A stretch of DNA of 59,888 bases from a virus (IMGVR_UViG_3300025132_004452:1-59888); one strand, 5' to 3'; counted from the first letter of the stretch, positions 2,400-39,268 are shown. The notes: generated from the sequence alone by a model not told the origin. Made by a program: numbers and translations.

Positions 2400-2402
2400 T
2401 TT

Positions 2403-2855: not shown

Positions 2856-2856
2856 T

Positions 2857-11836: not shown

Positions 11837-11868
11837 TACAAGCTTATTACGATGCACATTAGATAATA
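11837..11868 (+). promoter_or_regulatory. Early promoter-like repeat 1 (degenerate)
   Basis: TACAAGCTTATTACGA-N8-AGATAATA. Confidence 0.75.
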
Positions 11869-11894
11869 TAAATATAATTAATAACTTAAACAAT

Positions 11895-12059
11895 ATGAAT
11901 AACTTCAACTATCAATTCGAAATAATATTACCTGACTCATCAACTACATATCAATACAATGACTCACCTCATCTTACTCAAGACTTTCTTGATTACCTCA
12001 TCGACATTGATATTAACATCTACGACTGTATATATACTGTCACTGAAGTTACAAACTAA
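11895..12059 (+). CDS. First early gene; acidic 54-aa protein with no Lys/Arg
   Basis: MNNFNYQFEIILPDSSTTYQYNDSPHLTQDFLDYLIDIDINIYDCIYTVTEVTN; stop lies inside repeat 2. Confidence 0.6.
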   Translation: MNNFNYQFEIILPDSSTTYQYNDSPHLTQDFLDYLIDIDINIYDCIYTVTEVTN

Positions 12060-12081
12060 ACACAACTACAATAAGATAATA
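12050..12081 (+). promoter_or_regulatory. Early promoter-like repeat 2
   Basis: TACAAACTAAACACAA-N8-AGATAATA. Confidence 0.8.
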
Positions 12082-12110
12082 TAAATATAATAACTAAATA
12101 AATAATAACT

Positions 12111-12347
12111 ATGAAAACTAATAATATAACTACTAAAAGATTTGTAATCAGAAAATCACTAATAGGTACTAACTCAGTAATTACTTTTACTAACAAAAAA
12201 GATATTACATTCACTTATGATCATGATGAAATATACTCAACATTTCAAGAAAAGTTTGAATCAATGAAGTGTTTTCAAGAGTACAAGTCGTATACTAATT
12301 CAAATACTGTTCCAGCTTTTGCAAGAAACTTAAGTGAAATATCTTAA
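12111..12347 (+). CDS. Early hypothetical protein
   Basis: ORF track; follows repeat 2. Confidence 0.75.
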   Translation: MKTNNITTKRFVIRKSLIGTNSVITFTNKKDITFTYDHDEIYSTFQEKFESMKCFQEYKSYTNSNTVPAFARNLSEIS

Positions 12348-12355
12348 AACAACAG

Positions 12356-12402
12356 TATGACAATAGGGTGTTACTCTATACTATTAACTACCTAATGTCA
12401 CA
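12356..12402 (+). repeat. TGACA...TGTCACA element, copy 2 (47 bp)
   Basis: TATGACAATAGGGTGTTACTCTATACTATTAACTACCTAATGTCACA. Confidence 0.85.
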
Positions 12403-12503
12403 CTATGATAATACTTATTCATGTAAGTTATTCAGAGAATAAGTGTAACAACTAATAACTAAAAATAATAAATAAATAAACTATCACCTTTAAATTAAAT
12501 AAA

Positions 12504-12587
12504 ATGACTAATAAATTCCAAATAAATATAATAATAATACAAGTAGTAACAATACTAACTTTAACTATAATACTAATGTTATCTTAA
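12504..12587 (+). CDS. 27-aa single-TM peptide
   Basis: MTNKFQINIIIIQVVTILTLTIILMLS with an A-rich upstream context. Confidence 0.45.
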   Translation: MTNKFQINIIIIQVVTILTLTIILMLS

Positions 12588-12588
12588 T

Positions 12589-12620
12589 TACAAACTAAAC
12601 ACAATTACTTATAGATAATA
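12589..12620 (+). promoter_or_regulatory. Early promoter-like repeat 3
   Basis: TACAAACTAAACACAA-N8-AGATAATA. Confidence 0.8.
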
Positions 12621-12717
12621 TAATAAACAATAACAAAAGTCTTAGTTGATGGTAATACTTTAGAGACTATAAATATAATGAATATATTACTCAGCACAAA
12701 CAATAAAATTAAATAAT

Positions 12718-12954
12718 ATGAAAAAAGTAATATTAAGTATAGCAGCACTAGGCGTAATGTCTTTTACAACAAATCAATTATACTACGGAACTCAACTGGT
12801 ATGGGCAATAAGTAACTTAAATGACATGCAAGAGTATATTCATGAAGATATGGTCAATGGTAAGATAGATGAAGCAACTGCTGAAAACTATAATGAACTA
12901 CTTGACGAGACTCAAAGCTTTATACAAGATTTTTATGAAAAGCAATGTCGTTAA
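12718..12954 (+). CDS. Early protein with signal peptide
   Basis: MKKVILSIAALGVMSFT signal-like N-terminus; acidic helical body. Confidence 0.7.
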   Translation: MKKVILSIAALGVMSFTTNQLYYGTQLVWAISNLNDMQEYIHEDMVNGKIDEATAENYNELLDETQSFIQDFYEKQCR

Positions 12955-12986
12955 TACAAACTAAATACAATAAGCAATAGATAATA
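12955..12986 (+). promoter_or_regulatory. Early promoter-like repeat 4
   Basis: TACAAACTAAATACAA-N8-AGATAATA; ATG 6 nt after GATAAT. Confidence 0.8.
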
Positions 12987-12991
12987 CAAAT

Positions 12992-13249
12992 ATGAAAACA
13001 ATAACAACAAATAACTTAACAGCAAATATCTATCCAACAGGTGAAATTAAACTATCAGTTTATAAAACAACTAAATCTCCTTATGGTTGGTCACCTAGAA
13101 AACTGTTGTCAAGTTTTGTTGCTGTTGAACTAAAAGACTTTACATACTGGTATGTATGTAGCAAGGTAGCTGAGGTGTATGCTTCCTTTTCAAACAAAGA
13201 AATACACAATTTATTACAAAAAATACAAGTACATAATGATACAAAGTAA
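12992..13249 (+). CDS. Early hypothetical protein
   Basis: ORF track. Confidence 0.7.
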   Translation: MKTITTNNLTANIYPTGEIKLSVYKTTKSPYGWSPRKLLSSFVAVELKDFTYWYVCSKVAEVYASFSNKEIHNLLQKIQVHNDTK

Positions 13250-13388
13250 AATCAAACAGTTGCAAAACCTGTACTCGTGGAATCAGTTCTATCAAGATAG
13301 AAAGATGAAGCCAGAGATGAAAAAGTGCCAAAGTGATATTCACACGCTTAAAAATGTGATTAATGAATTAAAGAGTAAAAAGAAATGA
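13236..13388 (+). CDS. Early hypothetical protein
   Basis: Likely start ATG 13236 (MIQSKIKQL). Confidence 0.6.
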   Translation: MIQSKIKQLQNLYSWNQFYQDRKMKPEMKKCQSDIHTLKNVINELKSKKK

Positions 13389-13669
13389 AAGATACTAATG
13401 CAATAGAAAAAGCTATTATCGATAAAAGTAAACAAGAGATAGCTATAATAGTGGCAGACTTTATTACTAACGTTAATACTAAGCTTAGAAACAAGTACAA
13501 TGCATGTAGCTTTTACTACATCAAGCATCCTAATAGTGAACTAAAACAAATGTTTTCAGGTGATAACGAGTTAATGAAAGCATTATGTGCTACGTTAGAA
13601 GAAGGTCATATGAAAGCTATGGTGAATAAAAAATCAAAAGAATTACTAAACAAACTAGAACTAATATGA
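13385..13669 (+). CDS. Early hypothetical protein
   Basis: ORF track; ATGA overlap with the next gene. Confidence 0.7.
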   Translation: MKDTNAIEKAIIDKSKQEIAIIVADFITNVNTKLRNKYNACSFYYIKHPNSELKQMFSGDNELMKALCATLEEGHMKAMVNKKSKELLNKLELI

Positions 13670-13863
13670 AAGAAATACAAGCAATAGAGGCTATAACAAA
13701 AGATATTCTAGCCGGATACTATGGTACTAAACAAAATGCAGGTACTGAAACACAGAAATGGCAATATGCTCACAACCAAGCTAAAAAAATATATAGTGGT
13801 GAATTACTAATAGATCCTGATCATACTTGGTTTGATGAAGGTAAACAACACGAAGCTATATGA
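13666..13863 (+). CDS. Early hypothetical protein
   Basis: ORF track; ATGA overlaps at both ends. Confidence 0.7.
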   Translation: MKEIQAIEAITKDILAGYYGTKQNAGTETQKWQYAHNQAKKIYSGELLIDPDHTWFDEGKQHEAI

Positions 13864-14012
13864 GTGATTTTAGAACAATACAAGACTATATGTCTTATGA
13901 AAAAGAAACTGCAATACCAAAACTAAGGTGGTTACAAGTAAATGAATTAGCAATAAAGTATCCAAACAATCAAGAGTTTGGTGCAGAAGTAAGAAAATTA
14001 ATTAACAAATAA
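13860..14012 (+). CDS. Early 50-aa protein (YPNN.EFG.EVR)
   Basis: MSDFRTIQ...KYPNNQEFGAEVRKLINK; ATGA overlap. Confidence 0.65.
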   Translation: MSDFRTIQDYMSYEKETAIPKLRWLQVNELAIKYPNNQEFGAEVRKLINK

Positions 14013-14044
14013 TACAAACTAAATACAAACACTTAAAGATAATA
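14013..14044 (+). promoter_or_regulatory. Early promoter-like repeat 5
   Basis: TACAAACTAAATACAA-N8-AGATAATA. Confidence 0.8.
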
Positions 14045-14051
14045 TAAATAT

Positions 14052-14195
14052 ATGAAAACAATTAAATTTTATCCCAGTAACAGGTCAGTTATAAAACTAG
14101 ACGGCAAGAAAGTAAAAGGCTACACTATAGATAGCATACCAGATGACATTACATCTTGGTTTAATTACAAAGGTTTAACTTTTGTAGTCAACTAA
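14052..14195 (+). CDS. Early 47-aa protein
   Basis: MKTIKFYPSNRSVIKLDGKKVKGY...WFNYKGLTFVVN, directly after repeat 5. Confidence 0.65.
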   Translation: MKTIKFYPSNRSVIKLDGKKVKGYTIDSIPDDITSWFNYKGLTFVVN

Positions 14196-14201
14196 AAGCA
14201 A

Positions 14202-14313
14202 ACTACTGCTATACGTAAAGGTATGCGGTAGGACTAAGTGACGGCTTAGTATGGACAGCGAGGTCAGGTTACACTGTTCTAGACATGAGAGGTTCGAATC
14301 CTCTCTCTCGCTC
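14202..14313 (+). ncRNA. Structured RNA: two hairpins plus a truncated tRNA-like domain
   Basis: Acceptor-like AGCGAGG(14257)/TCTCGCT(14312); T-arm AGAGG-TTCGAAT-CCTCT; only 23 nt between them. Confidence 0.55.
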
Positions 14314-14314
14314 T

Positions 14315-14530
14315 ATGAATAATAAATGTAAATGTGGAAACGAAATCCACCCAGTAAGAATTAAATACGGTTATAGTAACTGTGTAGCATGTTCTACAGT
14401 AGAAAAGTACGGTTGTGCACCAGTTATTAACCACAAAACAGGCAATAGCATAGAAATATTGTCTAGAGCAGATGCAGAGCGCATCGCTAAACTAACACGT
14501 CGTAAAGGTTACGGCACAATGCTAAGATAA
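14315..14530 (+). CDS. C4 zinc-finger protein (DksA/TraR-like finger)
   Basis: CKCGNEIHPVRI...CVAC; likely start ATG 14315. Confidence 0.6.
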   Translation: MNNKCKCGNEIHPVRIKYGYSNCVACSTVEKYGCAPVINHKTGNSIEILSRADAERIAKLTRRKGYGTMLR

Positions 14531-14531
14531 T

Positions 14532-14885
14532 ATGACAAAAGCAAGAACAATAAACGAAATAAGACAAACTAAAGAGTATTACACAGGTAACAGCAAGAAT
14601 CAAGATCAAGAAGCCACTAAACAAATGGTAGAGATAGATCGTCAAGAGTGTGAACTTGATCCTGTTGAAGAAGCTAAAACACTAATAGTAGACAAGATAA
14701 CTAAACACTTTCATGATGTAATGTTTGAAATGGTTAACAAAGAAATGAGTAAGTGCTACTTGTTTCAATCACAAAACTATCTAACTGAAGCGGGTTATGA
14801 GCTATTTGAAGATGAATACTTTGAATTCTACCACAATCATCACGGTGACATTATGTATGAAGTAATGCAAAATATTACAAACTAA
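14532..14885 (+). CDS. Acidic early protein
   Basis: ORF track; stop lies inside repeat 6. Confidence 0.7.
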   Translation: MTKARTINEIRQTKEYYTGNSKNQDQEATKQMVEIDRQECELDPVEEAKTLIVDKITKHFHDVMFEMVNKEMSKCYLFQSQNYLTEAGYELFEDEYFEFYHNHHGDIMYEVMQNITN

Positions 14886-14907
14886 ATACGATTACTAACA
14901 GATAATA
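14876..14907 (+). promoter_or_regulatory. Early promoter-like repeat 6
   Basis: TACAAACTAAATACGA-N8-AGATAATA; ATG 6 nt after GATAAT. Confidence 0.8.
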
Positions 14908-14912
14908 TATAT

Positions 14913-15146
14913 ATGAAAACATTATATGACAAACTTAAACCAGAAATTAAAGCTAAACTCGAAGCTAACTACGCTGAAGGCTATGTTACAAGCATCGATA
15001 TTATCTTTAAACAATTAAAAACCAACAATAGATATAGTGCATTAACTATTGACGACGTTAAAACTTTAAATACATTTAGCGATGTATCTTTAGTTGAAAC
15101 TACTCAACTAGACTTAATGTATGGTGATCATCTATTTAATAACTAA
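14913..15146 (+). CDS. Early hypothetical protein
   Basis: ORF track. Confidence 0.7.
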   Translation: MKTLYDKLKPEIKAKLEANYAEGYVTSIDIIFKQLKTNNRYSALTIDDVKTLNTFSDVSLVETTQLDLMYGDHLFNN

Positions 15147-15149
15147 ACA

Positions 15150-15512
15150 ATGACAGAAAAACAATATGAAAAAGCATTACAAGCACTAGGTGCTGAGAAT
15201 GTAACTACAGAAAGGCAAAGAAAAAACGGCACTACAGCTTTCAAGCTACCAACAGGTCAAGTAGTATCAGAGCATAAATCAGGCTATATTAGAAGATACT
15301 TATACAAAGAAACAAAAGCTAACAGAGGTTACTTCGGTGACAGTACGTGTTATCAGCTAAACCCTACTTACGATATACCTCACAAAGCTATAGGCCAAAA
15401 CGGTCAAAAATATGAAAGTACTAGCAAAGCTAGAATGAGGATATGGTCTAGAAAGTCAAGATTAAAAGCATTATTTTTATACACTACTAAAAAATTAAAT
15501 TATGAGCTATAA
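15150..15512 (+). CDS. Basic early hypothetical protein
   Basis: ORF track. Confidence 0.7.
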   Translation: MTEKQYEKALQALGAENVTTERQRKNGTTAFKLPTGQVVSEHKSGYIRRYLYKETKANRGYFGDSTCYQLNPTYDIPHKAIGQNGQKYESTSKARMRIWSRKSRLKALFLYTTKKLNYEL

Positions 15513-15957
15513 AATACCATTACAAGGTGCAATGCCTGAAGAAAGAATGATTGAACTAGTTAAAAATCATTTAGAAATATCAGTGTCTCAAGATGTATCA
15601 GATTTCGATAATGTAGATTGTCACATATACAGTGAATCAACTGCAGATGGTTATGACGTATACATGTGTACCAACAATCCTAATCAACCTAGTATTTGTG
15701 AAGACGTATACTATTACGACAATGACCTATGTGATGCTTTTCAAGAGCAAATAAGGTATGGTGACAGAACATTTTACGTATGTGATAGTATATACGAAGA
15801 CTGTTACTTTGATGATACACTGTTAGAACTATTTTCAGAATACGTTGAAGACATTGTAGAAAATGACGAACTAGATATTACAATAGAAGAAATTAATTAT
15901 TTAAAGAAAGAATATGAGCTCGAAAACGAAGAAGCCGACAGCACCGAAGTGGTTTAA
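15502..15957 (+). CDS. Highly acidic protein (possible nucleic-acid mimic)
   Basis: Strongly D/E- and Tyr-rich. Confidence 0.65.
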   Translation: MSYKIPLQGAMPEERMIELVKNHLEISVSQDVSDFDNVDCHIYSESTADGYDVYMCTNNPNQPSICEDVYYYDNDLCDAFQEQIRYGDRTFYVCDSIYEDCYFDDTLLELFSEYVEDIVENDELDITIEEINYLKKEYELENEEADSTEVV

Positions 15958-16183
15958 AGGCATGATATATACAAAAGGTGGTCAAGTTACAAACCCTTTT
16001 TCCGGTGAGTTCTATGAGCTAACTGGCTTAGAACTAAGCGTTTACGACTTTATTATAGGTTGTCAAATGGTTTTTGATAACGCACCAAGCACAATGACTA
16101 AAAAAAGAATTAACGAATTTGATAAAGCATTAAACTGGTTTAGGACTAATAATCCTCAAGCTTACTACGTGTTGTTAGATTAG
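15914..16183 (+). CDS. Hypothetical protein
   Basis: ORF track; VTNPFSGE...LS.YD...A..WF....P.AY..LLD. Confidence 0.7.
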   Translation: MSSKTKKPTAPKWFKGMIYTKGGQVTNPFSGEFYELTGLELSVYDFIIGCQMVFDNAPSTMTKKRINEFDKALNWFRTNNPQAYYVLLD

Positions 16184-16198
16184 TAGTAGTTTAGTTAT

Positions 16199-16239
16199 CC
16201 ACGTTCGCTCGTACTGTAAATAGTACGGGCTTTTCGTGG
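16199..16239 (+). terminator. GC-rich hairpin, probable terminator or processing stem
   Basis: CCACG-TTC-GCTCGTACT-GTAAAT-AGTACGGGC-TTTT-CGTGG. Confidence 0.55.
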
Positions 16240-16249
16240 TATAACATAT

Positions 16250-16281
16250 TACAAACTAAATACGAACACTAATAGATAATA
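16250..16281 (+). promoter_or_regulatory. Early promoter-like repeat 7
   Basis: TACAAACTAAATACGA-N8-AGATAATA; ATG 6 nt after GATAAT. Confidence 0.8.
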
Positions 16282-18297: not shown

Positions 18298-18916
18298 CGA
18301 TAGAAATATAAAATATTTAAATGATAAAAGAATTATATACCGTACAACACCAACGGATAAACCAACTAAAGTTTATAGCTGGGGATTATATTACAAAGAT
18401 GGTACTTACCAATGTTATGATTTATTTAGGTCTAAAGCTAAAATAAATACTTATAAATCTTTAAAATGGCATTTATTAGTATTGTGGTATTTAAACCCTG
18501 AGCTTAATCCAGATCAATTTAAAAAACTAACGTATGTTTTAACTACTAAAGAAAATGGTTTTACTACTTTCAGCATATCAGATAATGTTTTAGAAAAAAT
18601 ATTACACGATGTGTATATGTCTGATCTTGAAGAACCACCAACTAATAGATTAAGAAAAATAATTTTTAATACTATGTGTGGTTTAACAGCTAAAGAAAAG
18701 CTAAAAATAGTAGGAAAGTTATCTGGCAAAAACAAAAAAGTACAACAAGATGATCTATATCAGAGCATGTTAGACATAAACGATATGGGTGTTAAAATAA
18801 CCATAAGTAATCTAGCTGAACTATTTAAATGTTCAAGTAGAACAATACATAGAAATATGGGCGAAGAGCTAAAAAGAGAAAAAGAATTATTAAATAAAGA
18901 AATTGAAAAAGTATAA
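18290..18916 (+). CDS. DNA-binding protein with C-terminal HTH (candidate initiator or regulator)
   Basis: ITISNLAELFKCSSRTIHRNM HTH. Confidence 0.7.
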   Translation: MSYDRNIKYLNDKRIIYRTTPTDKPTKVYSWGLYYKDGTYQCYDLFRSKAKINTYKSLKWHLLVLWYLNPELNPDQFKKLTYVLTTKENGFTTFSISDNVLEKILHDVYMSDLEEPPTNRLRKIIFNTMCGLTAKEKLKIVGKLSGKNKKVQQDDLYQSMLDINDMGVKITISNLAELFKCSSRTIHRNMGEELKREKELLNKEIEKV

Positions 18917-19661
18917 TATTAAAAATTATATAAGATATAAAGAAGATATAAAACTAGCTATTCAAAAAATACCAGTTAAAAACTTTGTTGATTATACTAA
19001 TAAAGAACTAAAAATAATATTCTTACCTTTAGTAGAAAACGTTGCAAGAAAATTTTCAACCGCTCAAGAAGCTTCAGGTGTTATGTCTATAATGGATTTA
19101 ATACAAGAAGGTAGTATACAACTTTGCAAAGCTGTTGATAAAATAGATAGAGAAAAGTTAGCCGATTCAGATGATGTAGCTAAAACTCTAAAATCATTTT
19201 TTGCAAAAAGAGTTAGAGGTGGAATACGTAGAGAAATAGATAGAAACAGAGCTCAAATGCGTATACCAGAGCATAAACTAAACGAGATAAGAAAAGACGG
19301 TGGTAAAGATAAAAAAATGGTTGCTATGTTTTTTAATTCAATGTTTTTAAGTATAGATAATAAACCTTACGAAGATGATGATATGATATATCAAATACCT
19401 GATAAATCAGATCCTTATAATGAAGACATGTTAAATGCTTACATAATGAGCTTATTAACTAAACATCTTGAATGGAAAGAAATGTTTACATTAGAAAAAA
19501 GCTATGGTTTAACAGGTCCTAAATGGTCTGCTAAAGAAATAGCTGATAAATTAGATATACACGGAGTATCATCTTATGTAAGAGTTTCAGAGTTAAAAAG
19601 ACAAGCAGTCGACAAACTTATAGAAAATGTAGATCACTCGCAAGTGGTTGACTTTCTGTAA
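18903..19661 (+). CDS. RNA polymerase sigma-70 family factor (TTG start)
   Basis: LPLVENVARKF...MDLIQEGSIQL.KAVDK (region 2); MRIPEHK; C-terminal HTH AKEIA...RVSELKRQA. Confidence 0.88.
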   Translation: MKKYNIKNYIRYKEDIKLAIQKIPVKNFVDYTNKELKIIFLPLVENVARKFSTAQEASGVMSIMDLIQEGSIQLCKAVDKIDREKLADSDDVAKTLKSFFAKRVRGGIRREIDRNRAQMRIPEHKLNEIRKDGGKDKKMVAMFFNSMFLSIDNKPYEDDDMIYQIPDKSDPYNEDMLNAYIMSLLTKHLEWKEMFTLEKSYGLTGPKWSAKEIADKLDIHGVSSYVRVSELKRQAVDKLIENVDHSQVVDFL

Positions 19662-25510: not shown

Positions 25511-25603
25511 CAAGAAGAAAATACGCTGAACGTCAATTAGAAAAGTTTATAAAATGGAGCGTTGAAAGTAAAGGTTATTTAAAATATAAAGAATTAATAG
25601 AGT

Positions 25604-25828
25604 ATGAAAGAAAGTACTTTGCTAGAAATGCAAAATAAAATTAACGCTATGACAAGAGTGTTACAGCAATTAATAAATGAAAATACGCAGTTAAGAGATT
25701 TATCTGTTGGATCTTTAGAGATAATAAAACTTTTGCCTGGATATGATGAAGCATTAGAATCTTTAAAAGATAGTGTAACTAAAAAAGAGAAAGAGAAAGA
25801 TGGAGATATCAAATCAGATACTAAGTGA
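25604..25828 (+). CDS. Coiled-coil hypothetical protein
   Basis: ORF track. Confidence 0.65.
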   Translation: MKESTLLEMQNKINAMTRVLQQLINENTQLRDLSVGSLEIIKLLPGYDEALESLKDSVTKKEKEKDGDIKSDTK

Positions 25829-29548: not shown

Positions 29549-29807
29549 CTCTATTTTGTTTAGTCATTTCTTTACACCATTCTCTAAGCTCTTGTATTTC
29601 ATCTTCAAGATCTTTTATATGGTTTGTTTGCCATTGTTGTTTTAAATCATATTCTATTCTATCTATAACAGCCTTAGGCATTTTTTTAGCTTCTTCTATA
29701 TCACTTTGTAGAGTGAAGTACATTCCCATGAATGACGATGTTACTACTATTATACTAACAATAGTTTTTAAATCTAATCTAAATTCGGTGCTTTCTCCTA
29801 TTTTCAT
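29529..29807 (-). CDS. TM plus coiled-coil protein
   Basis: N-terminal hydrophobic helix followed by a coiled coil. Confidence 0.65.
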   Translation of the reverse strand: MKIGESTEFRLDLKTIVSIIVVTSSFMGMYFTLQSDIEEAKKMPKAVIDRIEYDLKQQWQTNHIKDLEDEIQELREWCKEMTKQNRDGNKKR

Positions 29808-32800
29808 TTTTTCATTAGCTCTATAAGTTTTGCTACTCTATCTTTTTCGTATCTTAATGCACGAATCTGTTTCTTGCTTAAACCTAAACTATCTAAAATT
29901 TCAACTTGTCTAGGTTTTTTTAATTTTTTATACTTAGTAACTTCTTTTTGCTTGTTTTCTACATCTATGTCTTTTTGTGTTAATAGTTTTTTAGGCGAAT
30001 ATTGACCTTCATTATCTCTCTTAGCTTTCATTCTCTTTCTATAAGCTGACTTAGCTTCTTTTTGAGAATCTATATATTCTTTTCTTTCTTCAGTAGAATT
30101 AAGCTGATAATCTTTCCAACCTAATAAAAGAGATATTCTTTTCCAAGTTTGCTGTTCATCTTCTAAAGCACTTCTAACATTTTCTGATTTACTTATTAGT
30201 CTATCAACAGGAACGTTAGTCAGTCCTGATATAACATATGCAGCTGATTTATAAGCAGGATCATCTATACTCCATTTAGCTTCATCATGTTTATAACCTT
30301 CGTACTTCCAAGTTAAACCAGCTTGTCTAAGCTTACTTAGTTTTATATCTATAGGAGGAGAAAAGTTTAACATTTCATTTGCAGCGTCTTCGTAGTTAGG
30401 ACCTGGAAAAGTACCTTCTTTTTTAGACTCTTTGTATACTTTTCTACCAACTGATATTAATGTAGATAAAGCAACTCCATATATACCTGTACCATTTAAC
30501 ACCGTATTTAACATACCATTGGCTACATTTAAATATCTTTCGTTTTCACTTTCTTCTTCCTCTTCTTCATTAAAAGCTAATGCGAATAAACCTTGTTGTA
30601 AGGCTGAAAATATCATACTTTGTACAGCCATATAATAAGTAACTCTTGATATGTTACTCACATCACTTTGGAACTGTGTCATTCCTTTACGCTTTCTTCT
30701 GTTTATCAAATCTAAGAAAGATTTTTTACCTAACCTATTCATTTGCATAGGTGTATTTTGAAAAGCTAATATTAACCTACCTAAAGTACTCGCTTGTTGT
30801 TGTGACACTCTATCTGGACGAGATGATTGCTGTGACTCTTCTGCTATTTCTCTAAATTCTAAAAACGCTTGTTTTTTAGCATCAGCCTCACTCATACCTT
30901 CCTTCATTAAAGCATTTATTCTATTCCTATAAAATGTAGCACCACCTGATGCAATAGCAAAACTATCTGCAAATTGTGTTGGTAAGTAACCTTTAGAAAG
31001 TATATAAGCTATAGCTGCTTTAGCTTTATTTTTACTTGTAGCTGCAGCATCTGCTATTTCAGATTCACTCACGTTTAATTTTAACCCATTACGTCTTTCA
31101 ACCAAAAACTCAGAGTTCATTAACTCAGAAAAATCTTTCCAATATTGAGTTTGATTAGCAAAAGCTTTACCAGCATTATATATATTATTACTACCAAAGT
31201 CGATAAAGTTAACAGCTGATATAGTCTGAAGTAAAGCTGATCTCATGTTAAAAAACATAACTGTACCAACAGAATTATTAATATAATCTAACAATCTATT
31301 TTCTATTTTACCCATTTTGTTAGATCTGTTTCTACCAGACTTCATCCTAGAAATCATATCTTCCATAGCGTCTCTCCAGTTAGTACCAAAAGCAGCTTCC
31401 ATCTTGTTAAGATTTTTAGGTGAAAATATTAAATCAATATTATCTTGCCATTCTTGTAAGTACTTACTTCTTTTACCTGTTCTAAGACCGTCTAATAAAT
31501 CAGTTGATATAGTACCTGCTAACCAATTGGCTGTTGGCGCGGCGTAACCGTCACCTTTGTTTATGTCAATTAAGTTTTGAGCAAAAACATCTATAGCTTG
31601 GTTTTTCTTAGCAAAGGCTAACACTTGTTTTAAATCTGCTTTAGATATTCCTGGTATATCCATACCTTGTTTGTTCCACGCTAATATTCTAGCTACATCA
31701 GAGTGAGTGAATTCACCAAATGCTATTTTATTTAAGTTCTTAGGTATTAAACCCTCTTTAATTAGCTGCTCTTTTAAAACTTTAAAGTCATTGATCATTC
31801 TATTTTGATCACGAGATAAGTTTTCCATAGCTCTACCGTAAGGTTCAATTAAATGCTTATTGAAAAAGTCCATTTGCATGTTACCTATTTCACCTTTGCC
31901 TAACATAGAATATAATAAACCTACAAAATCCTCTGCAGAAGGTGGAATAAATAGTTTAAACTTACCTTTTTTTCTACCTACAAGTCTTGCTTTAACATCT
32001 GAATATTCTTTTTCAGATTTTATACCAGTTTTGTGTTCTATAATATCATTTACAGTTTGATCTACGGTTTTACTAAATTTAATTTTAGCTTGTTGCACTG
32101 CTGACTTAACATCTATAACACTTAAAGCATCTTTAACCGCTTGCACGTTTTGTATAGCATCATCTGCAAAATAAAAATCATTATAACCCTCAGCAGCTTT
32201 ATTAACTACCCAGTTAGCTTTAGCAGCACCTGTAGAGTTACCTAGACCAGTTATATTTTTTAAAGGTATATTAAGACCTAAACTATCTAAAAACTCTTTA
32301 ATTGCAGCTTGTGACTCAGGAGCTCTTGCTGTTAGCACAAAAACATCTTCTGTTCCTCTAGCTGCTTGTATTTTTTTAGCAACGTCTAATAATGGACCTG
32401 GCTTACCATCTCTAACTATATTGAAGTCACTAAAGTCAAACTCACCTCCTTCATTTAATATCTCTCCACCTCGTTCTGCAAATTCCTCAGCCGTTAATGT
32501 ACCTTTAGTTCCATCAGGCATAGTATAAAATACATTACTTTTTGTTCTTGCTAAAGTATCGTCAAAGTCGAACACTCTTATTTTTTTAACAGGAGCGTTA
32601 GGATCTCTAGCTATATCTAAAGCTTTATCCATCATATTAGCTTGCTCTATAGTCTGTTTATTAGTTTTAGTTTTAGAAAAAGGAGTAACACCACTATTTG
32701 ATTGAGATTTCTCATTAGCTTGAGTTGCTTCGTGTTGAGATTTTGCTAAAGCCAAGTGAGGTTTTAATATTTCATTTGCTATTTTAGAAGTAATTTGTCC

Positions 32801-35800
32801 ATCAAATATTTCAAATAATAATTGTTGTTGAATTTTTATAATACCAGGTGTTTGTAAATCTTTACTTACTTCTAAACCAAATTCTTTAGCTATTGAATTA
32901 CCATTAGACAATATAATAACATTAGGATTTATACCAGTGTGTTGATCACCATTTTCATCTATTCTAACTTGACTATTTACATTAGAGTTAAAATATCTTA
33001 TCCATACTGGTTTTAATCCTAACAATACGTCTGCTACATATTGAGAAGGAATATTTTTAATATAATCAAATTTAATTCCATCCGGTCCAACACCTTTTAA
33101 CATGCCGTCGTAAACTTTAGGTAAAGCTCCTTGAAAAAACGATTCTAAGGCTGGATCTATATATTGTTCTACATTATCTTGTGCCATTCTGTTTAATAAA
33201 AATTTCATTAAATCAGATGCAGGTTCTGTATGTTCTTCTACGTTTTTTAAATTAAGAGTATTTCCAAATTCTATAATTGAACCTGTTCTCCCAAAGTGAT
33301 TTTGAGAACCACTAGTAGAAGATAAAAGCCCTGCTACAACAGGTAAGAATTTAGCTTTATCAAACTGAACAGCGTCATTTAAAGACATGATTAATTCTTT
33401 AAAACCATCTCTTTTATTAATTTGCTCTTGCGTAAACTTAGGAGTACCTAACTCTCTTTGCATTTTAGCACTATAACCTTGTCTCTTAACAGCTTCTTTT
33501 ATATTTTTACTAGTTTCTACACCTTTGTCATCTATCTTAGTTTCTAAAGCAAAAGTATTTCCTCTTTTTTTAGCTTCTGCTATAGCGTTTTTTACTTGAA
33601 GAGCGTTAGCGAATAAAAACGTTCCTACAGGAGCGATTTTTAATTGAACTGATTTTTTAACAAAATCTTCATCTGAGTTTAATATTGTAGATCCATCAAT
33701 TAATTTATATTCTCTAAGGGTTTCTGTAGGTTTATTTAATAATCCATTTTTTTGTAAACGTTTTTTAACTTTAACACTTAGTGGAGTTCCAAGATTTACA
33801 TTATCTCCACCATTAGATAATGTTCCAGCCGTTAAAGCTGATTCAGGTAGGAAATTTATTAATGCACTGTTTTTATCAAAAAATATTTTATCTATAAGTT
33901 CTTTTTTACCCTCAGGAGTGTTTGCATCTATAGCGTCAAGATCATAGTTAGTTACTATTTCTTTAAAGTCCGCTTGCTCAGCTAGTAGTTGTGGACCAGG
34001 GTCGGCTTGAAACAAGTATGCTGTTTTAGCAATAGCTTTACTTTTAGCCTTTGGTAATTTAATTTTAATTTTACCACTATCTTCTACTATTCCCAATAAA
34101 GTGTTAGAATATAAGTTTAAGACTTCTTGTACGTTTTGATTTTTAGAAGATATATAACTTTTAATCAATTCACTTAAATCTTTTCCGTTTTCTATTTTAT
34201 TAATAATGTTTGAACCTTGTAAAAACTGTTCTAAGTTATTGATTTCATTTAAAACCTCGTACTGTTGTAGATTAGTTTTATTTGTTTTACTAAATTTAGA
34301 ACCAGGCACTCTATCAATATTCTTACCTACAACCGCTGTGTAATTCTCAGCTTGTCTTAATCCTTGTAACTCATAAATATCTTTAATTCTGTTTTGCACA
34401 GCTGGATCTTCTAAAACCTCCATAGTAGCGTCAAACGCTAACTCTTGAGCTATAGCACCTGCTAACGCATCTTTTCTAGTTCCTTTAGTCGATGCTCCTA
34501 CGTTTGAGCCTAGAAAATAATCCATAAACTCTGATCTCTTAACGTCTTTCTTTCTAAATAAAGGATTATTATCTGGTCTAGCTTGTTTACCTGTGGCTGG
34601 ATCAATTAATGGCTCTACAAACTGTCTAAATCGTTTGTTAGCGGTTGATTGTGATATAGCATTAAACACTGTTTGAAAGTTTTCACTTAAGAAAGTTTCA
34701 TAATTAGCTCTAGTACCTATAAACTTTTTTATCTCCTTAAACAATTCTTTGTCAAAAGCTTTTTTAAGATCTTCTCTAAACTTTTTATTGCTTACCTCAG
34801 GTAATTTAGTTCCAAGAACTTTACGCACAGAGTCTAAAACCTTATTATATATAGGTCCACCTTTCTCTATACCTAATTTAGTTCTCATGTTATCTATAGT
34901 ATCCTCTACTATATTAGCATCAATTCCAGCTTCGATATTAGTATCATCTGCAATAGTTTCTCCTATAGTTCTACCTTCTTCACCTAGCTTTTGATCTGTA
35001 GATACTTGTACGCCTGGTTTCTTAGCCTTTTCCCTCTTAGCTTTGTTAGTTACATCACCTACACGTCTGCCAATATAAGAGTTCATCCAAGCAAATAAAC
35101 TGTCATTTTTACTAGGGTCAAAACTCATTAAGTGATCAGCTAGCTTATCTCTAGTTTCTTGTATAATATTCTCTCTACTCTTGTCGTATATAGTTTGACC
35201 AGTAGCCATTTTATCTATAATGAGTCCATCAAACTTGCCTTGACTAATAGCTGTATACACTTTGCTAAATGCTCTATCTTTATCTTGAAGAAACTCGGCT
35301 TTAGTCATTTTATATTTGCCATCTGGACCTTTAGGACCTGGAGCTTCATTGGTTAAGTCTGTTAGCTCTGATCTTTCAGCTTTAGTTAAAGATAGTTTAC
35401 TTTTACTAACAGGTTTAGAATCTTTTTTAATTGTTTTCTTTTTACGAGATATTTCAGCAGTACCTTCAGCTATTGATTTAGTTAAACCACTTAGCTCACC
35501 TGTTTCAAAAGAATTATTATAACTAGTAATCATGTCAAATACATCTTTACCAGTTTTTATTTGTCCTGATCCATCATTAAATTTCTGAAACCTACCAAAC
35601 ATCTTATTGTACAAAGTTCTATCTGCTTCTAAATTATTCTGTCTCATAAAATCACTAAGCCTAGCTAAGCTTTCTTCAGCTACTAAAGTGGGGTTAGATA
35701 AATCACCTTTTGAGTCATACTCTCCATATAATTCTTTAGTTTCTAAAAAGTTTTGATATGCTTCTTTATAGTTTTTCTTAACATATGACTCAAGATCTTG

Positions 35801-38800
35801 AACTAAACCTACAGCATCAGGATTGTTTTCCATAAATTGCTTAAACAACGTATGGTGACCTATTTCATGAGATTGTACTGTAGAATTATTTCTGTTTAAA
35901 GCAAAAGTTATAGGTAGATTTATATTTTTAGTACCTTTACTACCGTCTTCGTTTGTAACTTCAATAGTTAGATTATCACCAAAAGCCATACCATTAACAG
36001 TTGCATCGCCTCTTGAAGCTTTGTCAGCTACTTCAAACTGCTGCTTCATTAATTCTTTTACTTGTAGCTTTTCTGAATCGTTTAAATCAGTTCTACTATC
36101 TACATATTCTAAACCTGCATCTAGAGCTTGTTTGTTGTTGTCACCAACAACCATTTCTACATTACCTAAAGTACCGTTTTTAGCTCTATAAGCATCAGCA
36201 AACTTTTTAGCTCTACCCTTATCAGCACTCCACTCTGCATTACTTAAAGTAAAATTCTTAACTGCTTCAACGGCCTTTAGTTCAATTAGCTGTTTGTTTA
36301 TAAGATCAGCTGCTGTTTTTTCGTCAAGATTTTTATCACTGTTTATTTTATCTATTTCAGATCTTATCTTGTGCTCAGCATTGAAACCATTTATTAGTCT
36401 TTGTCTATCTTCTTTAGTTAAAGACATTATTTCAGATCTAACTTTTTCTTGATCAGCTAATTGTTCTTTTGCTAGATCATGCATTTGTTTCTCTACTAAA
36501 GCCTTAGACTTAACTATAGCATCATGAGCTCCTGTTTTAGGCGTTAAACCAGCTAATTGCGTTTCATAACCTTTTATGGTATTACTTAATCTTAATATCT
36601 CTTTTCCTCTTTCTGCTATTTTAGCATTTCTATCAGGACCTCTAAAAGCTTGATATGTTTGTGCGACTAAACCAGGTGATTGCATAGTGCCAGACATTAC
36701 TAAACCAGAAACCATAGATTCAGTAAAACCATCTAGCATAGATACGTCTTTATTGCCTAGTATATATATCTCAGCAGCATTTTGAGATAGAGTAACAGCT
36801 CCTTCACCAAACGCTTCACCTGGAACACCTTTGACAAAATCTTTAGCACCTTCTTTTAAGTTTAACCATCGTTGATTAATCTTATTAGATATTGGCGAAC
36901 CTTTTTTAGCCACTTTGCTTAAGTCAAAAGCTTTTCTTAAATTTTTAGCACCTAGTTTAAAGTTGCCTAAAGTTATTTTTTCACTTGCATATTCAGCTAT
37001 ACCATAAATTCCAGCTGTACCATAAAATTGTAAAGCATTTATTTCTTCTGGTTGAATTTTATAAGTTTCATCATCACCTAAAGGATTAAAGCCAAACTCT
37101 TTTTTGAAATCTTGTATATATTTCATTTCGTTTAAGTTCCACTTTTCACCTTCCATACGCTTTTTCATATCGTACATTTGGTTACCACTTTCACTTAGTG
37201 CAGAAAGCACTAGACCACCACCGCCAGGAACTACTATTGATAAACCAGTGTTAAGTAATTGACCAGTTAGCATTTCAGTACCCCATCTCATACCGGCTTT
37301 AATACCATCTATTTCATCAAATCTTGCAGCAGGTCTATTTCTATTCAATAACTCTTCACCAAACTCAGAAGATTTTTTAAGCAAGTCATCAGCGGTTTCA
37401 TCTGCAAAGTTAGCAACATCCATAGCTAAGTTTACAGCATCACCTCCAGTTTCTCCAAACACATCATATGAAAAGTCGCTTATAGCTTTTACAGTGTCAT
37501 CATCTTTTAAGTCAAATCCAACGTGTTCTAAAACATTTAAAGGATTTGAAACTTCATTTAAAACAGCGCCTAGACCAGTAACTATTCTTACAGCGCTATT
37601 AGCAAGAATATTTTCATGGATTTCTAAAACGTTATATGTTTTTTGAGTTTTATCTATTATAGCTTGAGCATTATTTCCTTCAAACTGTATATTTCCTAAA
37701 AACTCCATATCAGCTTTTATATTTTTTTCAGCTAATATTACACTATTTTTTATGCTATTAAACTGATCAACGTCTTTTTGAGTTGCGTTAGGATCATTTT
37801 CTATTTTCTTTTTTAAATCATTTAATTTCGCGGCTTGAGCCAATATATTAACAGATTGCCCCTCGATGTTGTTGAGTATAACATTGGCTTCGTAATCACT
37901 GGTTTTGTTACTTAATTCTAATAGTCTTCCTAGATCTTTTTTATTTTTTTGATAATCTTCCCTAGAGTTTTCCATTCCTAAAACCTCATCAGCAGTAGTG
38001 TTAAAAAGTTTTTCAGCAATCTTCTTTTGTATAATAAACTGAGGAGCACTAGAGACAAGATTAACCACGTTGTTCCAAGCACCAACTCCTTGTTTATCTT
38101 CAAAAGTTTCTAAGGCTTCATCTATTGTATCTCTAACTTTTTTTGAATCAAGTTTTTCTTCAGATATTAAAGAAGTAGCAGACATTCTACTTGTTAAATC
38201 TAATAATTCAGGGCTTATATTTATATCTTTTACTAACTCAGGGTTTTTTGTTACCTCTTGTATAGAAGGTAAATATATTAACTCATTGTCAGTTCCTAAA
38301 CTAGCAACTGCATCATCTTTGTTTGTTGTTGTTTTTTTACCAGTCTTTTTTATATCAATAACCATATCCTGGTATTGATCTAAAAAGTTTTTTGTTAATT
38401 CATTTGATTTTCTACTAGCTTGCTTAGCCCAAGTAGTTGAATCAGAGCCTTTTCTACTTTCATTATTGCTCAAAGGTTTTAATTTCCAAGTAGCTGCATT
38501 ATTTGGATCGTATTTTTCACCATACCATTTCTTAGCTAGTTTATTATATGATATATCTTTCCATCTTTTTTTATTACTATCTATAGGTAAAGATCTATTA
38601 ATAAGATCTTGATTCTCCTCTTTGTTAGCCAATGCATATATTAAAGAAGACCCAACGTATTTACCACCAGACTGTTGTAATAAATTAGCATTTTTTAAAG
38701 ATTCTTTTTTCTGTGTTATTTTTTCATTAATTTCTTCATCAGTTGCTTGGGTTTCTATTTCAATGTTTTTTAACAATTTAGCAGCTGTTAATCTATCATT

Positions 38801-39268
38801 TCCTCCACTTCCTGACATTAAACCAACGAATTCTTTTCTTTCGGCTTGTACTTCTGCTATTTTTTTAGCTAATTTATCTCCTACAAGTGGTTCACCATTT
38901 TCATCTTTAGCTATTGTTTGGTTTGGTTTTTGTAATAGCTCTAAATACTGATCGTATTCTTTAGTATCAAAAGCATCGTCTTCAACATCAAATTGACTTT
39001 TAACTTCAATATTTTCTTCTTCACCGTCTTTTTTACTGCTTTTTTCAAAATTTAATATACGAGTTTCAAAAGTTTTAAATTTATCTTCATCACTCTCGCC
39101 TTCCATTCTTTGTATAAAAGTATCGTCAATAGAATCTAATGTGTTATATACATTACTTAAAAAACTATCATCATTTTTTATTCTTGATTTAAAATCAGTT
39201 ATAGTAAAGTTTGAATCATCAAAAGTTAATGTTTCAAATATTTCTGAAGCGTAGTCTTTTTCTTCCAT
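29804..39268 (-). CDS. Giant virion ejection/polyvalent protein (zincin, sigma-like and HAD domains)
   Basis: Last of three ejection-type genes after the tail; HEIGHH near 35860, sigma region 2/3-like segment near 34940-35260, FDFDDT HAD near 32560. Confidence 0.8.
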   Translation of the reverse strand: MEEKDYASEIFETLTFDDSNFTITDFKSRIKNDDSFLSNVYNTLDSIDDTFIQRMEGESDEDKFKTFETRILNFEKSSKKDGEEENIEVKSQFDVEDDAFDTKEYDQYLELLQKPNQTIAKDENGEPLVGDKLAKKIAEVQAERKEFVGLMSGSGGNDRLTAAKLLKNIEIETQATDEEINEKITQKKESLKNANLLQQSGGKYVGSSLIYALANKEENQDLINRSLPIDSNKKRWKDISYNKLAKKWYGEKYDPNNAATWKLKPLSNNESRKGSDSTTWAKQASRKSNELTKNFLDQYQDMVIDIKKTGKKTTTNKDDAVASLGTDNELIYLPSIQEVTKNPELVKDINISPELLDLTSRMSATSLISEEKLDSKKVRDTIDEALETFEDKQGVGAWNNVVNLVSSAPQFIIQKKIAEKLFNTTADEVLGMENSREDYQKNKKDLGRLLELSNKTSDYEANVILNNIEGQSVNILAQAAKLNDLKKKIENDPNATQKDVDQFNSIKNSVILAEKNIKADMEFLGNIQFEGNNAQAIIDKTQKTYNVLEIHENILANSAVRIVTGLGAVLNEVSNPLNVLEHVGFDLKDDDTVKAISDFSYDVFGETGGDAVNLAMDVANFADETADDLLKKSSEFGEELLNRNRPAARFDEIDGIKAGMRWGTEMLTGQLLNTGLSIVVPGGGGLVLSALSESGNQMYDMKKRMEGEKWNLNEMKYIQDFKKEFGFNPLGDDETYKIQPEEINALQFYGTAGIYGIAEYASEKITLGNFKLGAKNLRKAFDLSKVAKKGSPISNKINQRWLNLKEGAKDFVKGVPGEAFGEGAVTLSQNAAEIYILGNKDVSMLDGFTESMVSGLVMSGTMQSPGLVAQTYQAFRGPDRNAKIAERGKEILRLSNTIKGYETQLAGLTPKTGAHDAIVKSKALVEKQMHDLAKEQLADQEKVRSEIMSLTKEDRQRLINGFNAEHKIRSEIDKINSDKNLDEKTAADLINKQLIELKAVEAVKNFTLSNAEWSADKGRAKKFADAYRAKNGTLGNVEMVVGDNNKQALDAGLEYVDSRTDLNDSEKLQVKELMKQQFEVADKASRGDATVNGMAFGDNLTIEVTNEDGSKGTKNINLPITFALNRNNSTVQSHEIGHHTLFKQFMENNPDAVGLVQDLESYVKKNYKEAYQNFLETKELYGEYDSKGDLSNPTLVAEESLARLSDFMRQNNLEADRTLYNKMFGRFQKFNDGSGQIKTGKDVFDMITSYNNSFETGELSGLTKSIAEGTAEISRKKKTIKKDSKPVSKSKLSLTKAERSELTDLTNEAPGPKGPDGKYKMTKAEFLQDKDRAFSKVYTAISQGKFDGLIIDKMATGQTIYDKSRENIIQETRDKLADHLMSFDPSKNDSLFAWMNSYIGRRVGDVTNKAKREKAKKPGVQVSTDQKLGEEGRTIGETIADDTNIEAGIDANIVEDTIDNMRTKLGIEKGGPIYNKVLDSVRKVLGTKLPEVSNKKFREDLKKAFDKELFKEIKKFIGTRANYETFLSENFQTVFNAISQSTANKRFRQFVEPLIDPATGKQARPDNNPLFRKKDVKRSEFMDYFLGSNVGASTKGTRKDALAGAIAQELAFDATMEVLEDPAVQNRIKDIYELQGLRQAENYTAVVGKNIDRVPGSKFSKTNKTNLQQYEVLNEINNLEQFLQGSNIINKIENGKDLSELIKSYISSKNQNVQEVLNLYSNTLLGIVEDSGKIKIKLPKAKSKAIAKTAYLFQADPGPQLLAEQADFKEIVTNYDLDAIDANTPEGKKELIDKIFFDKNSALINFLPESALTAGTLSNGGDNVNLGTPLSVKVKKRLQKNGLLNKPTETLREYKLIDGSTILNSDEDFVKKSVQLKIAPVGTFLFANALQVKNAIAEAKKRGNTFALETKIDDKGVETSKNIKEAVKRQGYSAKMQRELGTPKFTQEQINKRDGFKELIMSLNDAVQFDKAKFLPVVAGLLSSTSGSQNHFGRTGSIIEFGNTLNLKNVEEHTEPASDLMKFLLNRMAQDNVEQYIDPALESFFQGALPKVYDGMLKGVGPDGIKFDYIKNIPSQYVADVLLGLKPVWIRYFNSNVNSQVRIDENGDQHTGINPNVIILSNGNSIAKEFGLEVSKDLQTPGIIKIQQQLLFEIFDGQITSKIANEILKPHLALAKSQHEATQANEKSQSNSGVTPFSKTKTNKQTIEQANMMDKALDIARDPNAPVKKIRVFDFDDTLARTKSNVFYTMPDGTKGTLTAEEFAERGGEILNEGGEFDFSDFNIVRDGKPGPLLDVAKKIQAARGTEDVFVLTARAPESQAAIKEFLDSLGLNIPLKNITGLGNSTGAAKANWVVNKAAEGYNDFYFADDAIQNVQAVKDALSVIDVKSAVQQAKIKFSKTVDQTVNDIIEHKTGIKSEKEYSDVKARLVGRKKGKFKLFIPPSAEDFVGLLYSMLGKGEIGNMQMDFFNKHLIEPYGRAMENLSRDQNRMINDFKVLKEQLIKEGLIPKNLNKIAFGEFTHSDVARILAWNKQGMDIPGISKADLKQVLAFAKKNQAIDVFAQNLIDINKGDGYAAPTANWLAGTISTDLLDGLRTGKRSKYLQEWQDNIDLIFSPKNLNKMEAAFGTNWRDAMEDMISRMKSGRNRSNKMGKIENRLLDYINNSVGTVMFFNMRSALLQTISAVNFIDFGSNNIYNAGKAFANQTQYWKDFSELMNSEFLVERRNGLKLNVSESEIADAAATSKNKAKAAIAYILSKGYLPTQFADSFAIASGGATFYRNRINALMKEGMSEADAKKQAFLEFREIAEESQQSSRPDRVSQQQASTLGRLILAFQNTPMQMNRLGKKSFLDLINRRKRKGMTQFQSDVSNISRVTYYMAVQSMIFSALQQGLFALAFNEEEEEESENERYLNVANGMLNTVLNGTGIYGVALSTLISVGRKVYKESKKEGTFPGPNYEDAANEMLNFSPPIDIKLSKLRQAGLTWKYEGYKHDEAKWSIDDPAYKSAAYVISGLTNVPVDRLISKSENVRSALEDEQQTWKRISLLLGWKDYQLNSTEERKEYIDSQKEAKSAYRKRMKAKRDNEGQYSPKKLLTQKDIDVENKQKEVTKYKKLKKPRQVEILDSLGLSKKQIRALRYEKDRVAKLIELMKK

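Follow-up and report, generated by a model that had tools for sequence, protein, structure and literature searches.

A giant mosaic protein of a marine Bacteroidota podophage combines a zincin site, a sigma-factor domain 2-like fold and repeated linker motifs

The virus record IMGVR_UViG_3300025132_004452:1-59888, taken as our window over its full length of 59,888 bases and estimated to be 93% complete, encodes on its minus strand a giant protein of 3154 amino acids. We find that this protein belongs to a family of mosaic carriers whose modules meet at conserved joints and can be exchanged as cassettes, that it bears conserved zincin and HAD-phosphatase sites, and that a helical domain within its module ii has a fold like that of sigma-factor domain 2. 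We put at about 50% the probability that it is a polyvalent carrier which is packed in the virion, is cut by its own zincin at the linkers, and delivers module ii to act on the host RNA polymerase.

The open reading frame (ORF) of the giant protein is open from its ATG over all 3154 codons, the length given in an earlier reading made from the sequence alone (hereafter the sequence-only reading). TerL, portal and several “virion structural protein” matches to PHROG profiles lie upstream of it on the same strand. The terminase is closest to those of Flavobacterium, Cellulophaga and Tenacibaculum podophages (87 records, best 63%), and the source is a ~60-kb podophage of marine Bacteroidota.

Four short motifs divide the protein (Table 1). 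All the motif strings quoted in the sequence-only reading are present, its linkers lie within ~15 nucleotides of where it had placed them, and the module sizes agree with it (361 residues for module ii, 532 for module iii and 195 for the HAD module). FSKT occurs three times in the giant ORF against 0.05 expected from composition, and the wider pattern [FLM]S[KR][ST] has three copies here and a single other one among the real genes of the window, in a 1463-residue virion protein. The first linker, SKLSLT, corresponds in alignments to KFSK, KMSK and SLSK of relatives. At least one copy of FS[KR][TS] is found in 81 of 120 family proteins (close to middling relatives), and among 93 representatives of clusters at ≤50% identity, 55 carry at least one copy of the linker motif and 30 at least two. 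Across 213 family proteins the motif occurs 226 times versus 18.8 in shuffles, a count over homologous proteins whose copies are not independent. In relatives, K-[FLM]-S-[KR]-[ST] keeps to the same three or four contexts: one copy precedes the sigma-like domain, another closes module ii (“IDRDP..KFSKS”), and the HAD module has a copy in front of it and one where it ends (“KVQQAK.KFSKS”). The repeated linkers claimed for the domain borders are thus indeed kept at homologous borders in relatives less than 50% identical. The serine codon differs between copies (AGT, AGT and TCT), which places the constraint at the protein level. Both linkers inside our AlphaFold2 model, described below, lie at the edges of low-confidence segments.

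Exchange at these joints is seen directly in two relatives, P0002 and P0003. Each is 92-100% identical to the giant protein over residues ~1026-1650 and from ~2226 to the end, and 4-36% identical over residues ~1676-2200. Identity stops right after “GSKFS” and returns ~25 residues past the next FSKT. Because the break falls between two linkers, module iii is an exchanged cassette, and the idea of a modular protein with motif-delimited borders is borne out by this exchange. Other relatives hold extra modules between additional linker copies. Module iii itself has no match in Pfam, PHROGs or the PDB.

A word-indexed search identified 2222 relatives at E ≤ 1e-3 among 7997 scored candidates; these are 1700-3500 residues long and sit on contigs of at most ~65 kb. 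In an exhaustive search, the zincin module together with module ii (residues 1090-1665) gave 362 clusters at 50% identity. We took a census of modules over 119 relatives, using BLAST coverage and purpose-built module hidden Markov models (HMMs). HAD and the C-terminal modules C1 and C2 are present in 119 of 119, the zincin in 96, iiC in 83, iiiB in 73 and N1-N3 in 19-39, while the strict sigma-2-like HMM matches 43. The zincin occurs together with iiC in 77 of these relatives, and module order is constant across the family. The family thus consists of a fixed chassis, HAD plus ~750 C-terminal residues, with variable cargo modules in front. Free-standing copies of module ii are rare: nine matches of 199-634 residues, mostly on short contigs.

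The family is abundant and almost entirely unannotated. Single-sequence searches with the whole protein returned nothing in Pfam, NCBIfam or PDB sequences, and PDB profile searches with two family alignments (A1 and A4) returned chance rows only. Twenty loci were found in prokaryote assemblies, all of them contigs of metagenome-assembled genomes (MAGs), 15 with Bacteroidota labels. In translated searches (tblastn) of 50,697 phage records, residues 1-3000, 2195-3154 and 701-1095 all went unmatched, the last of these even at E ≤ 1.

Related phages hold a giant gene in the same slot, encoding gp21 of Flavobacterium phage elemoA (3694 residues) and a 3859-residue protein in MW202828.1. The elemoA protein is annotated “structural protein” and matches our module HMMs for N3 (residues 701-1095; E 2.2e-21) and the zincin (E 3.9e-9); the MW202828.1 protein has no blastp or module-HMM similarity to the giant protein. 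In related podophages the slot, not the sequence, is conserved, and the gene content is largely or wholly different. At the slot loci MW202828.1 741-12320 and NC_055852.1 50563-61647, a gene for 3700-3900 residues follows the tail genes.

The zincin site was claimed as HEIGHH with a downstream EE, and we find both. HExxH and the downstream glutamate are conserved in all aligned relatives and near-invariant in family alignment A3. The AlphaFold2 model puts HExxH and EE in helices that are preceded by two strands, which is consistent with a zincin fold. Single family members give weak Pfam matches to M90, Reprolysin_3 and M48.

The HAD module was likewise read correctly from sequence: FDFDDT stands at residue 2233, LTAR at 2312 and FADD at 2367, and the four catalytic motifs (D2234, D2236 and T2238; T2313; K2350; D2369-D2370) are near-invariant in alignments A3 and A4. 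The PHROG profile phrog_415, “polynucleotide kinase”, matches residues 2220-2413 weakly (E 1.1e-4); a Pfam HAD match (E 0.048) lies below the cut-off, and the module has no PDB sequence match. Like T4 polynucleotide kinase/phosphatase (phrog_415), the module is of the HAD phosphatase type with DxDxT, and some relatives add a P-loop kinase. Unlike in the T4 enzyme, the kinase is absent here, and in relatives it lies inside HAD rather than in front of it. We found such a kinase (AAA_33 or Zeta_toxin type) in 2 of 15 giant relatives scanned; in P0015 (residues 2060-2300) it is inserted inside HAD right after DxDxT. The 3154 residues contain no Walker A motif, so this member hides no kinase.

The C-terminal core, which defines the family, includes two mildly hydrophobic helices (residues 2881-2899 and 2923-2941). 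In the Atlas it matches viral hypothetical clusters only, with LPD39 and LPD38 as weak leads; the Pfam models for LPD38, LPD39 and MuF have no match.

To characterize module ii, we modeled residues 1090-1665 (576 residues) with AlphaFold2 from the 45-row alignment A1, at a mean predicted local distance difference test score (pLDDT) of 79.4. The model contains three folded parts between low-confidence segments: the zincin module, model residues 205-330 (residues 1294-1419 of the protein) and model residues 370-565. We compared it with 48,161 chains in an exhaustive VIA-align search, whose rows are named by entry and not by chain within complexes. Sigma-factor or RNA polymerase initiation entries fill the first 24 of 24 rows (Z 7.2-5.6, 71-113 residues aligned), and all 24 match model residues ~205-330. 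The best are SigB (Z 7.2; 89 residues aligned, 3.1 Å) and the T4 late-complex chain 7d7d_F (Z 7.1; 113/137 aligned); other rows include pro-sigma-K, sigma-32, SigI, sigma-E region 2, SigC, sigma-H and SigW. When the 740 best Foldseek chains were re-aligned with VIA, 24 of 24 rows were sigma entries (Z 6.9-4.9), with the next row at 3.6.

Sequence profiles point to the same residues. Pfam Sigma70_r2 (PF04542) matches residues 1364-1409 (positions 35042-35179) with 14.2 bits and E 0.002, and in a six-frame scan of the genome this model finds two places only, these residues and a separate sigma-factor gene (Table 1). The string that had been quoted as region 2, at residue 1374, lies within this sub-threshold match. 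We also used hhalign to compare 208 family segments with a reference set of 30 genuine sigma genes taken from the genomes of three Bacteroidota MAGs, and obtained P = 3.4e-4 over 69 columns, in a register that lays residues 1335-1410 on sigma positions 16-86, region 2.1-2.4. In the controls, P was 0.048-0.59 for ten other modules, 0.36 when the alignment was reversed and 0.39-0.99 when its columns were shuffled (20 shuffles). The domain therefore resembles domain 2 of the sigma-70 family (extracytoplasmic function sigma factors and others) in its fold over ~90-113 residues and in its region 2.1-2.4 register, and differs from that family in being embedded at residue ~1296 of 3154, in scoring below the Pfam cut-off and in having no sigma-4 that we could find.

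Several results weigh against this assignment. Every VIA Z is below 8, a range for which the tool warns of a common helical arrangement, and the row that follows the sigma entries in the wide search is a TetR protein at Z 5.4. Foldseek with the 576-residue model returned no row at E ≤ 1e-3 in the PDB or BFVD; the top viral row (E 2.1e-3) is a protein of an uncultured virus that bears the name of a kinase. The Sigma70_r2 score of 14.2 bits is below the gathering cut-off of 24, none of the 45 members of alignment A1 matches Sigma70_r2 at E ≤ 0.1, and this model has no match in the record of a homologue 60% identical over module ii or in MW202828.1. The hhalign probability of the sigma match is 38%, a modest support. 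Our sigma-2-like HMM misses the phage’s own sigma factor, and hhalign against a profile of that protein (120 sequences, effective number of sequences 1.6) gives a probability of 0.2%, a failure that we attribute to a shallow and very divergent template. On balance, we judge it likely that residues ~1296-1420 form a diverged sigma-factor domain 2. The sequence-only reading’s sigma region 2 thus stands as to fold and 2.1-2.4 register, but not as to a Pfam match above cut-off; and modeling of about 34300-35390, from which it had expected a sigma-2 result, gave sigma rows in VIA for residues ~1296-1420 but nothing in Foldseek at E ≤ 1e-3.

The rest of module ii looks less like a sigma factor. The segment that had been read as region 3.2 (VSTDQKLGEEG..., residue 1422) proves to be part of an acidic linker predicted to be disordered, with pLDDT <50. 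Beyond it lies domain iiC, which when modeled alone (residues 1455-1662) reaches a pLDDT of 93.2 and a predicted template modeling score of 0.87. Structure searches with iiC gave a best VIA Z of 4.3, with none at ≥5, and nothing in Foldseek at E ≤ 1e-3; as modeled, iiC is without a known fold. It is the best-conserved part of module ii, ahead of the sigma-like part. Sigma-3 was not found in module ii, hhalign of iiC against the sigma profile gave P 0.073 on the wrong region, and Pfam Sigma70_r4 and Sigma70_r4_2 have no match in the genome, the separate sigma gene included. Module ii is not recognizable as a complete sigma factor. As a whole it is basic (isoelectric point 9.0), with linkers on both sides.

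One other ORF is matched by the sigma-2-like HMM besides the giant ORF, a 377-residue gene at 39273-40406 (minus strand) directly upstream of it. The match is weak (E 0.0011) and probably compositional or due to a coiled coil. A gene of similar size also precedes the homologue in locus L005.

In our view these results are best explained by the following course of events. The giant protein would travel in the phage head and enter the cell together with the DNA; we infer this from its position as the last large virion gene, from the syntenic “structural protein” of elemoA and from the analogy with N4, crAss-like and polyvalent proteins. As cargo it would bring ~1100 residues of N-terminal sequence, the zincin, the sigma-2-derived domain with iiC, and the exchangeable cassette. 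The built-in zincin would then cut after the first lysine of K-[FLM]-S-K-[ST], releasing about five pieces of ~144, 41, 60, 22 and 86 kDa. The ~41-kDa piece, comprising the sigma-2-like domain and iiC, is predicted from fold and homology to dock on the β′ clamp helices of host RNA polymerase, where it may either direct the core enzyme to phage early promoters or displace host sigma factors.

A number of points tell against this course of events. Virion location, linker cleavage and promoter redirection are argued from analogy and gene position, RNA polymerase binding from fold and homology, and since no relative occurs in the 50,697 phage records, no proteomics can be transferred by homology. 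Structure comparison gave no zincin row, the zincin module having been searched only within the 576-residue model; we ascribe this to hit lists filled by the sigma-like domain. As a cleavage site, the strict linker motif would have to be degenerate or less than universal, since 38 of 93 representatives and 39 of 120 relatives lack it. A neutral flexible linker might also be retained at joints where modules recombine. Finally, the phage has a separate sigma gene, which the sequence-only reading did not mention.

Of the alternatives, the one that fares best is that K-F-S-K-[ST] is not cleaved and the chain stays uncut, with the motifs as flexible joints and the zincin directed at host proteins or peptidoglycan; we regard this as a real possibility without favoring it. 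The exchange boundaries at the motifs and the relatives that lack the strict motif fit such a chain, as does the N4 virion RNA polymerase, which has a zincin-type HExxH domain (PMC13434306) and is packaged unprocessed (PMC5512222). Yet the linker residues are kept despite a change of serine codon family and in relatives less than 50% identical, which is more than a neutral linker needs. Many zincins prefer a bulky hydrophobic residue at P1′, a preference that the bulky hydrophobic at a fixed position of the motif would suit. We also weighed two other ways of cutting the chain and set them aside: autoproteolysis of the Nup98 “HFS” type, as three different folds precede the motif, and a prohead protease, as the head-gene block has no PHROG protease match (a weak argument, two genes there being matchless).

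How the phage starts transcription bears on what a released module ii might do. No RNA polymerase gene was found among 48 ORFs scanned against PHROGs, in keeping with the sequence-only statement that none is visible. The separate sigma gene has more than 8000 homologues, many labeled PF04542, the 120 best of them 78-100% identical. Upstream of it, and in the same direction, lie seven matches to a bipartite promoter-like motif, ACAARCTWAWYAC-N9-13-AGATAATA, all on the plus strand, versus 0 expected in 100 shuffles. The copies inspected stand a few bases before an ATG, a spacing that suggests very short or absent leaders. This layout fits the sequence-only reading’s idea that these sites must be read by something first. 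The stretch from 11.5 to 14.5 kb is AT-rich and has small ORFs only.

Module ii might then be a true minimal sigma, delivered with the DNA, that steers host core RNA polymerase to the seven early promoters: sigma-2 would read the -10-like half AGATAATA, iiC would replace sigma-4 on ACAAACTAAAYAC, and the separate sigma would take over later. We think this unlikely, for all that speaks in its favor: the sigma-2 fold and register, the seven plus-strand motifs at the head of the early block, the sigma gene at 18903 downstream of them in the same direction, the lack of a phage RNA polymerase among the scanned ORFs, and the basic, linker-bounded character of the module. The T4 late-transcription chain 7d7d_F, which is among the two best structural matches, we take to be gp55. 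T4 gp55 is a sigma factor that works with a domain-2 core only. Against a minimal sigma stand the failure to detect sigma-4 or sigma-3 and the lack of anything that ties iiC to DNA. Module ii is, moreover, cargo and not core by its distribution (iiC and strict sigma-2 HMM counts above), which would be odd for an essential early step. The -10-like half of the early motif also resembles TATAAT. The preprint on crAss-like phages (10.1101/2020.03.07.982082) reports transcription from the T7 A1 promoter by Cellulophaga RNA polymerase and describes the phage middle promoters there as sigma-70-like; together with the TATAAT-like -10, these data suggest that the host primary sigma may suffice. The fullest form of the idea, in which a capsid-delivered minimal sigma made of sigma-2 and a new-fold DNA reader is released by the zincin at the K-F-S-K-T linkers and, ahead of all phage gene expression, reprograms host core RNA polymerase to the seven early promoters, is correspondingly unlikely. 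If true, the carrier family, with thousands of members in marine Bacteroidota phages, would serve generally as a delivery vehicle that a protease unpacks and whose effector cassettes can be swapped.

It is similarly improbable, in our view, that the sigma-2-like bundle has been re-used apart from RNA polymerase, holding single-stranded or end DNA in packaging or ejection, or serving as an element of an ejection conduit. Values of Z 5-7 are modest for a helical bundle, the Pfam match is below cut-off and not reproduced in a close homologue, and the N- and C-terminal parts contain mildly hydrophobic helices that would suit a membrane-active ejection protein. But three methods independent of one another converge on these ~120 residues and a sigma register, and no other module gives such a signal.

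The least probable alternative is an injected decoy that would sit on the β′ clamp helices and block host sigmas without promoter specificity, shutting off host transcription, inducible defense genes included: a sigma-2 fold without detectable sigma-4, an accessory, cargo-like distribution that suits a conflict effector as in polyvalent proteins, and the precedent of T4 Alt, an injected enzyme that modifies host RNA polymerase (both PMC5512222), are in line with it, but it does not explain iiC as the best-conserved part of the module, and the phage, in which no RNA polymerase gene was found, depends on the host enzyme and would itself suffer from a general block if its own sigma did not out-compete the decoy.

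In its general design the giant protein is of an already known kind, the phage polyvalent protein with a zincin hub; such proteins have been proposed to autoprocess (Iyer et al, 2017; PMC5512222). Several unrelated domains and a peptidase hub stand in one chain encoded among virion genes, and like the polyvalent proteins of that paper the protein is giant and mosaic, with many domains that have no assigned function. Unlike them, it has no Pfam match to MuF, LPD38 or LPD39. The word “sigma” has no occurrence in the main text of PMC5512222, which was the part searched, “polynucleotide kinase” has none, and of three occurrences of “HAD”, at least one an English verb, none was seen to name a HAD domain; the passages of that paper that we consulted mention no repeated linker motif at module borders.

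The N4 protein gp50 and the crAss-like gp65-gp66-gp67 are likewise very large podophage proteins with an HExxH or zincin domain attached. In N4 gp50 this is the C1 domain of the C-terminal domain (PMC13434306), and in phage phi14:2 it is gp65, which in some phages is fused into a polyprotein described as “likely cleaved” (preprint 10.1101/2020.03.07.982082). The N4 and crAss-like virion RNA polymerase proteins are packed and ejected to start early transcription; ours has no polymerase domain, and its sigma-2-like domain would have to borrow the host core enzyme. The comparison with crAss-like phages drawn in the sequence-only reading holds as an analogy, but the giant protein has no tblastn similarity to a protein of any isolated phage in the 50,697 records. 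Viral polyproteins combine a built-in protease with repeated cleavage motifs. The giant protein is like them in having a protease module and a short motif repeated at every module border, where cleavage is predicted, and unlike them in being a gene of a virion operon in a double-stranded DNA phage and not a genome-wide translation strategy.

What look new are the sigma-derived cargo module, the five-residue joint shared by all borders, and the direct evidence of exchange there. Full-text literature searches, covering main texts, gave no description of an injected or packaged sigma factor. Two ways are known in which phages seize transcription on entry: N4, crAss-like and jumbo phages inject an entire RNA polymerase, and T4 injects Alt, an enzyme that modifies the host polymerase. 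An ejected protein with a sigma-type domain would, if true, provide a third and cheaper route. With its fixed chassis, exchangeable modules and five-residue joint, the family is a natural cassette system, from which hypotheses can be drawn on processing, on iiC, on the C-terminal core and on the start of infection in marine Bacteroidota phages.

Table 1. Features of the giant protein and of the early region of the phage genome. Positions count from the first base of the window; aa, residues of the giant protein unless the row concerns another gene.
Feature	Position	Strand	Details
Giant ORF	29804..39268	-	ATG start, 3154 aa, no internal stop; last large gene of the virion-gene operon
N-terminal ~1095 aa	35984..39268	-	Variable; Gly-rich, mildly hydrophobic stretch at aa 674-692
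Zincin-like metallopeptidase module	35399..35971	-	HEIGHH at aa 1134, EE at aa 1198-1199 (~60 aa downstream)
Linker motif 1, SKLSLT	35384..35401	-	aa 1290-1295; end of a stretch with pLDDT <50
Sigma-factor domain 2-like helical domain	35009..35383	-	aa ~1296-1420; AlphaFold2 pLDDT ~80
Acidic, predicted-disordered linker	34901..35008	-	aa 1421-1456; pLDDT <50 over model residues 331-367
Domain iiC	34301..34900	-	aa ~1457-1656; strongly conserved helical domain
Linker motif 2, SKFSKT	34283..34300	-	aa 1657-1662; left border of the exchangeable cassette
Module iii	32687..34282	-	aa 1663-2194; exchangeable cassette (P0002/P0003 comparison)
Linker motif 3, TPFSKT	32669..32686	-	aa 2195-2200; right border of the cassette
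HAD-superfamily phosphatase module	32084..32668	-	DxDxT 2234-2238, TAR 2313-2315, Lys 2350, DD 2369-2370
Linker motif 4, IKFSKT	32066..32083	-	aa 2396-2401; context KVQQAK.KFSK[ST], the most widely kept copy
C-terminal ~750 aa, family-defining core	29807..32065	-	In 119/119 relatives; many invariant residues
Separate phage sigma-factor gene	18903..19661	+	252 aa; phrog_351 E 5.7e-15; Sigma70_r2 23.9-24.7 bits
Seven bipartite promoter-like motifs	11838..16281	+	ACAARCTWAWYAC-N9-13-AGATAATA; head of the early/replication block

Elsewhere in the genome, the adjacent virion genes at 41108-42883 (minus strand, 591 residues) and 42883-47274 (minus strand, 1463 residues) both match phrog_14478, a single profile of 1474 positions, at profile positions 899-1100 and 2-181, respectively; to judge from these matches, they look like a split or rearranged large virion protein. 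Genes for a GroEL-like chaperonin (6675-8216, minus strand; phrog_5725, E 4e-134) and a GroES-like co-chaperonin (58411-59004, minus strand; phrog_13932) lie far apart in the genome, and both also occur in MW202828.1. The plus-strand stretches 16570-17415 and 23186-27662 encode an ATP-dependent DNA ligase, a thymidylate synthase, a MazG-like pyrophosphatase and a ribonucleotide reductase. The phage DNA ligase might cooperate with an end-healing HAD module.

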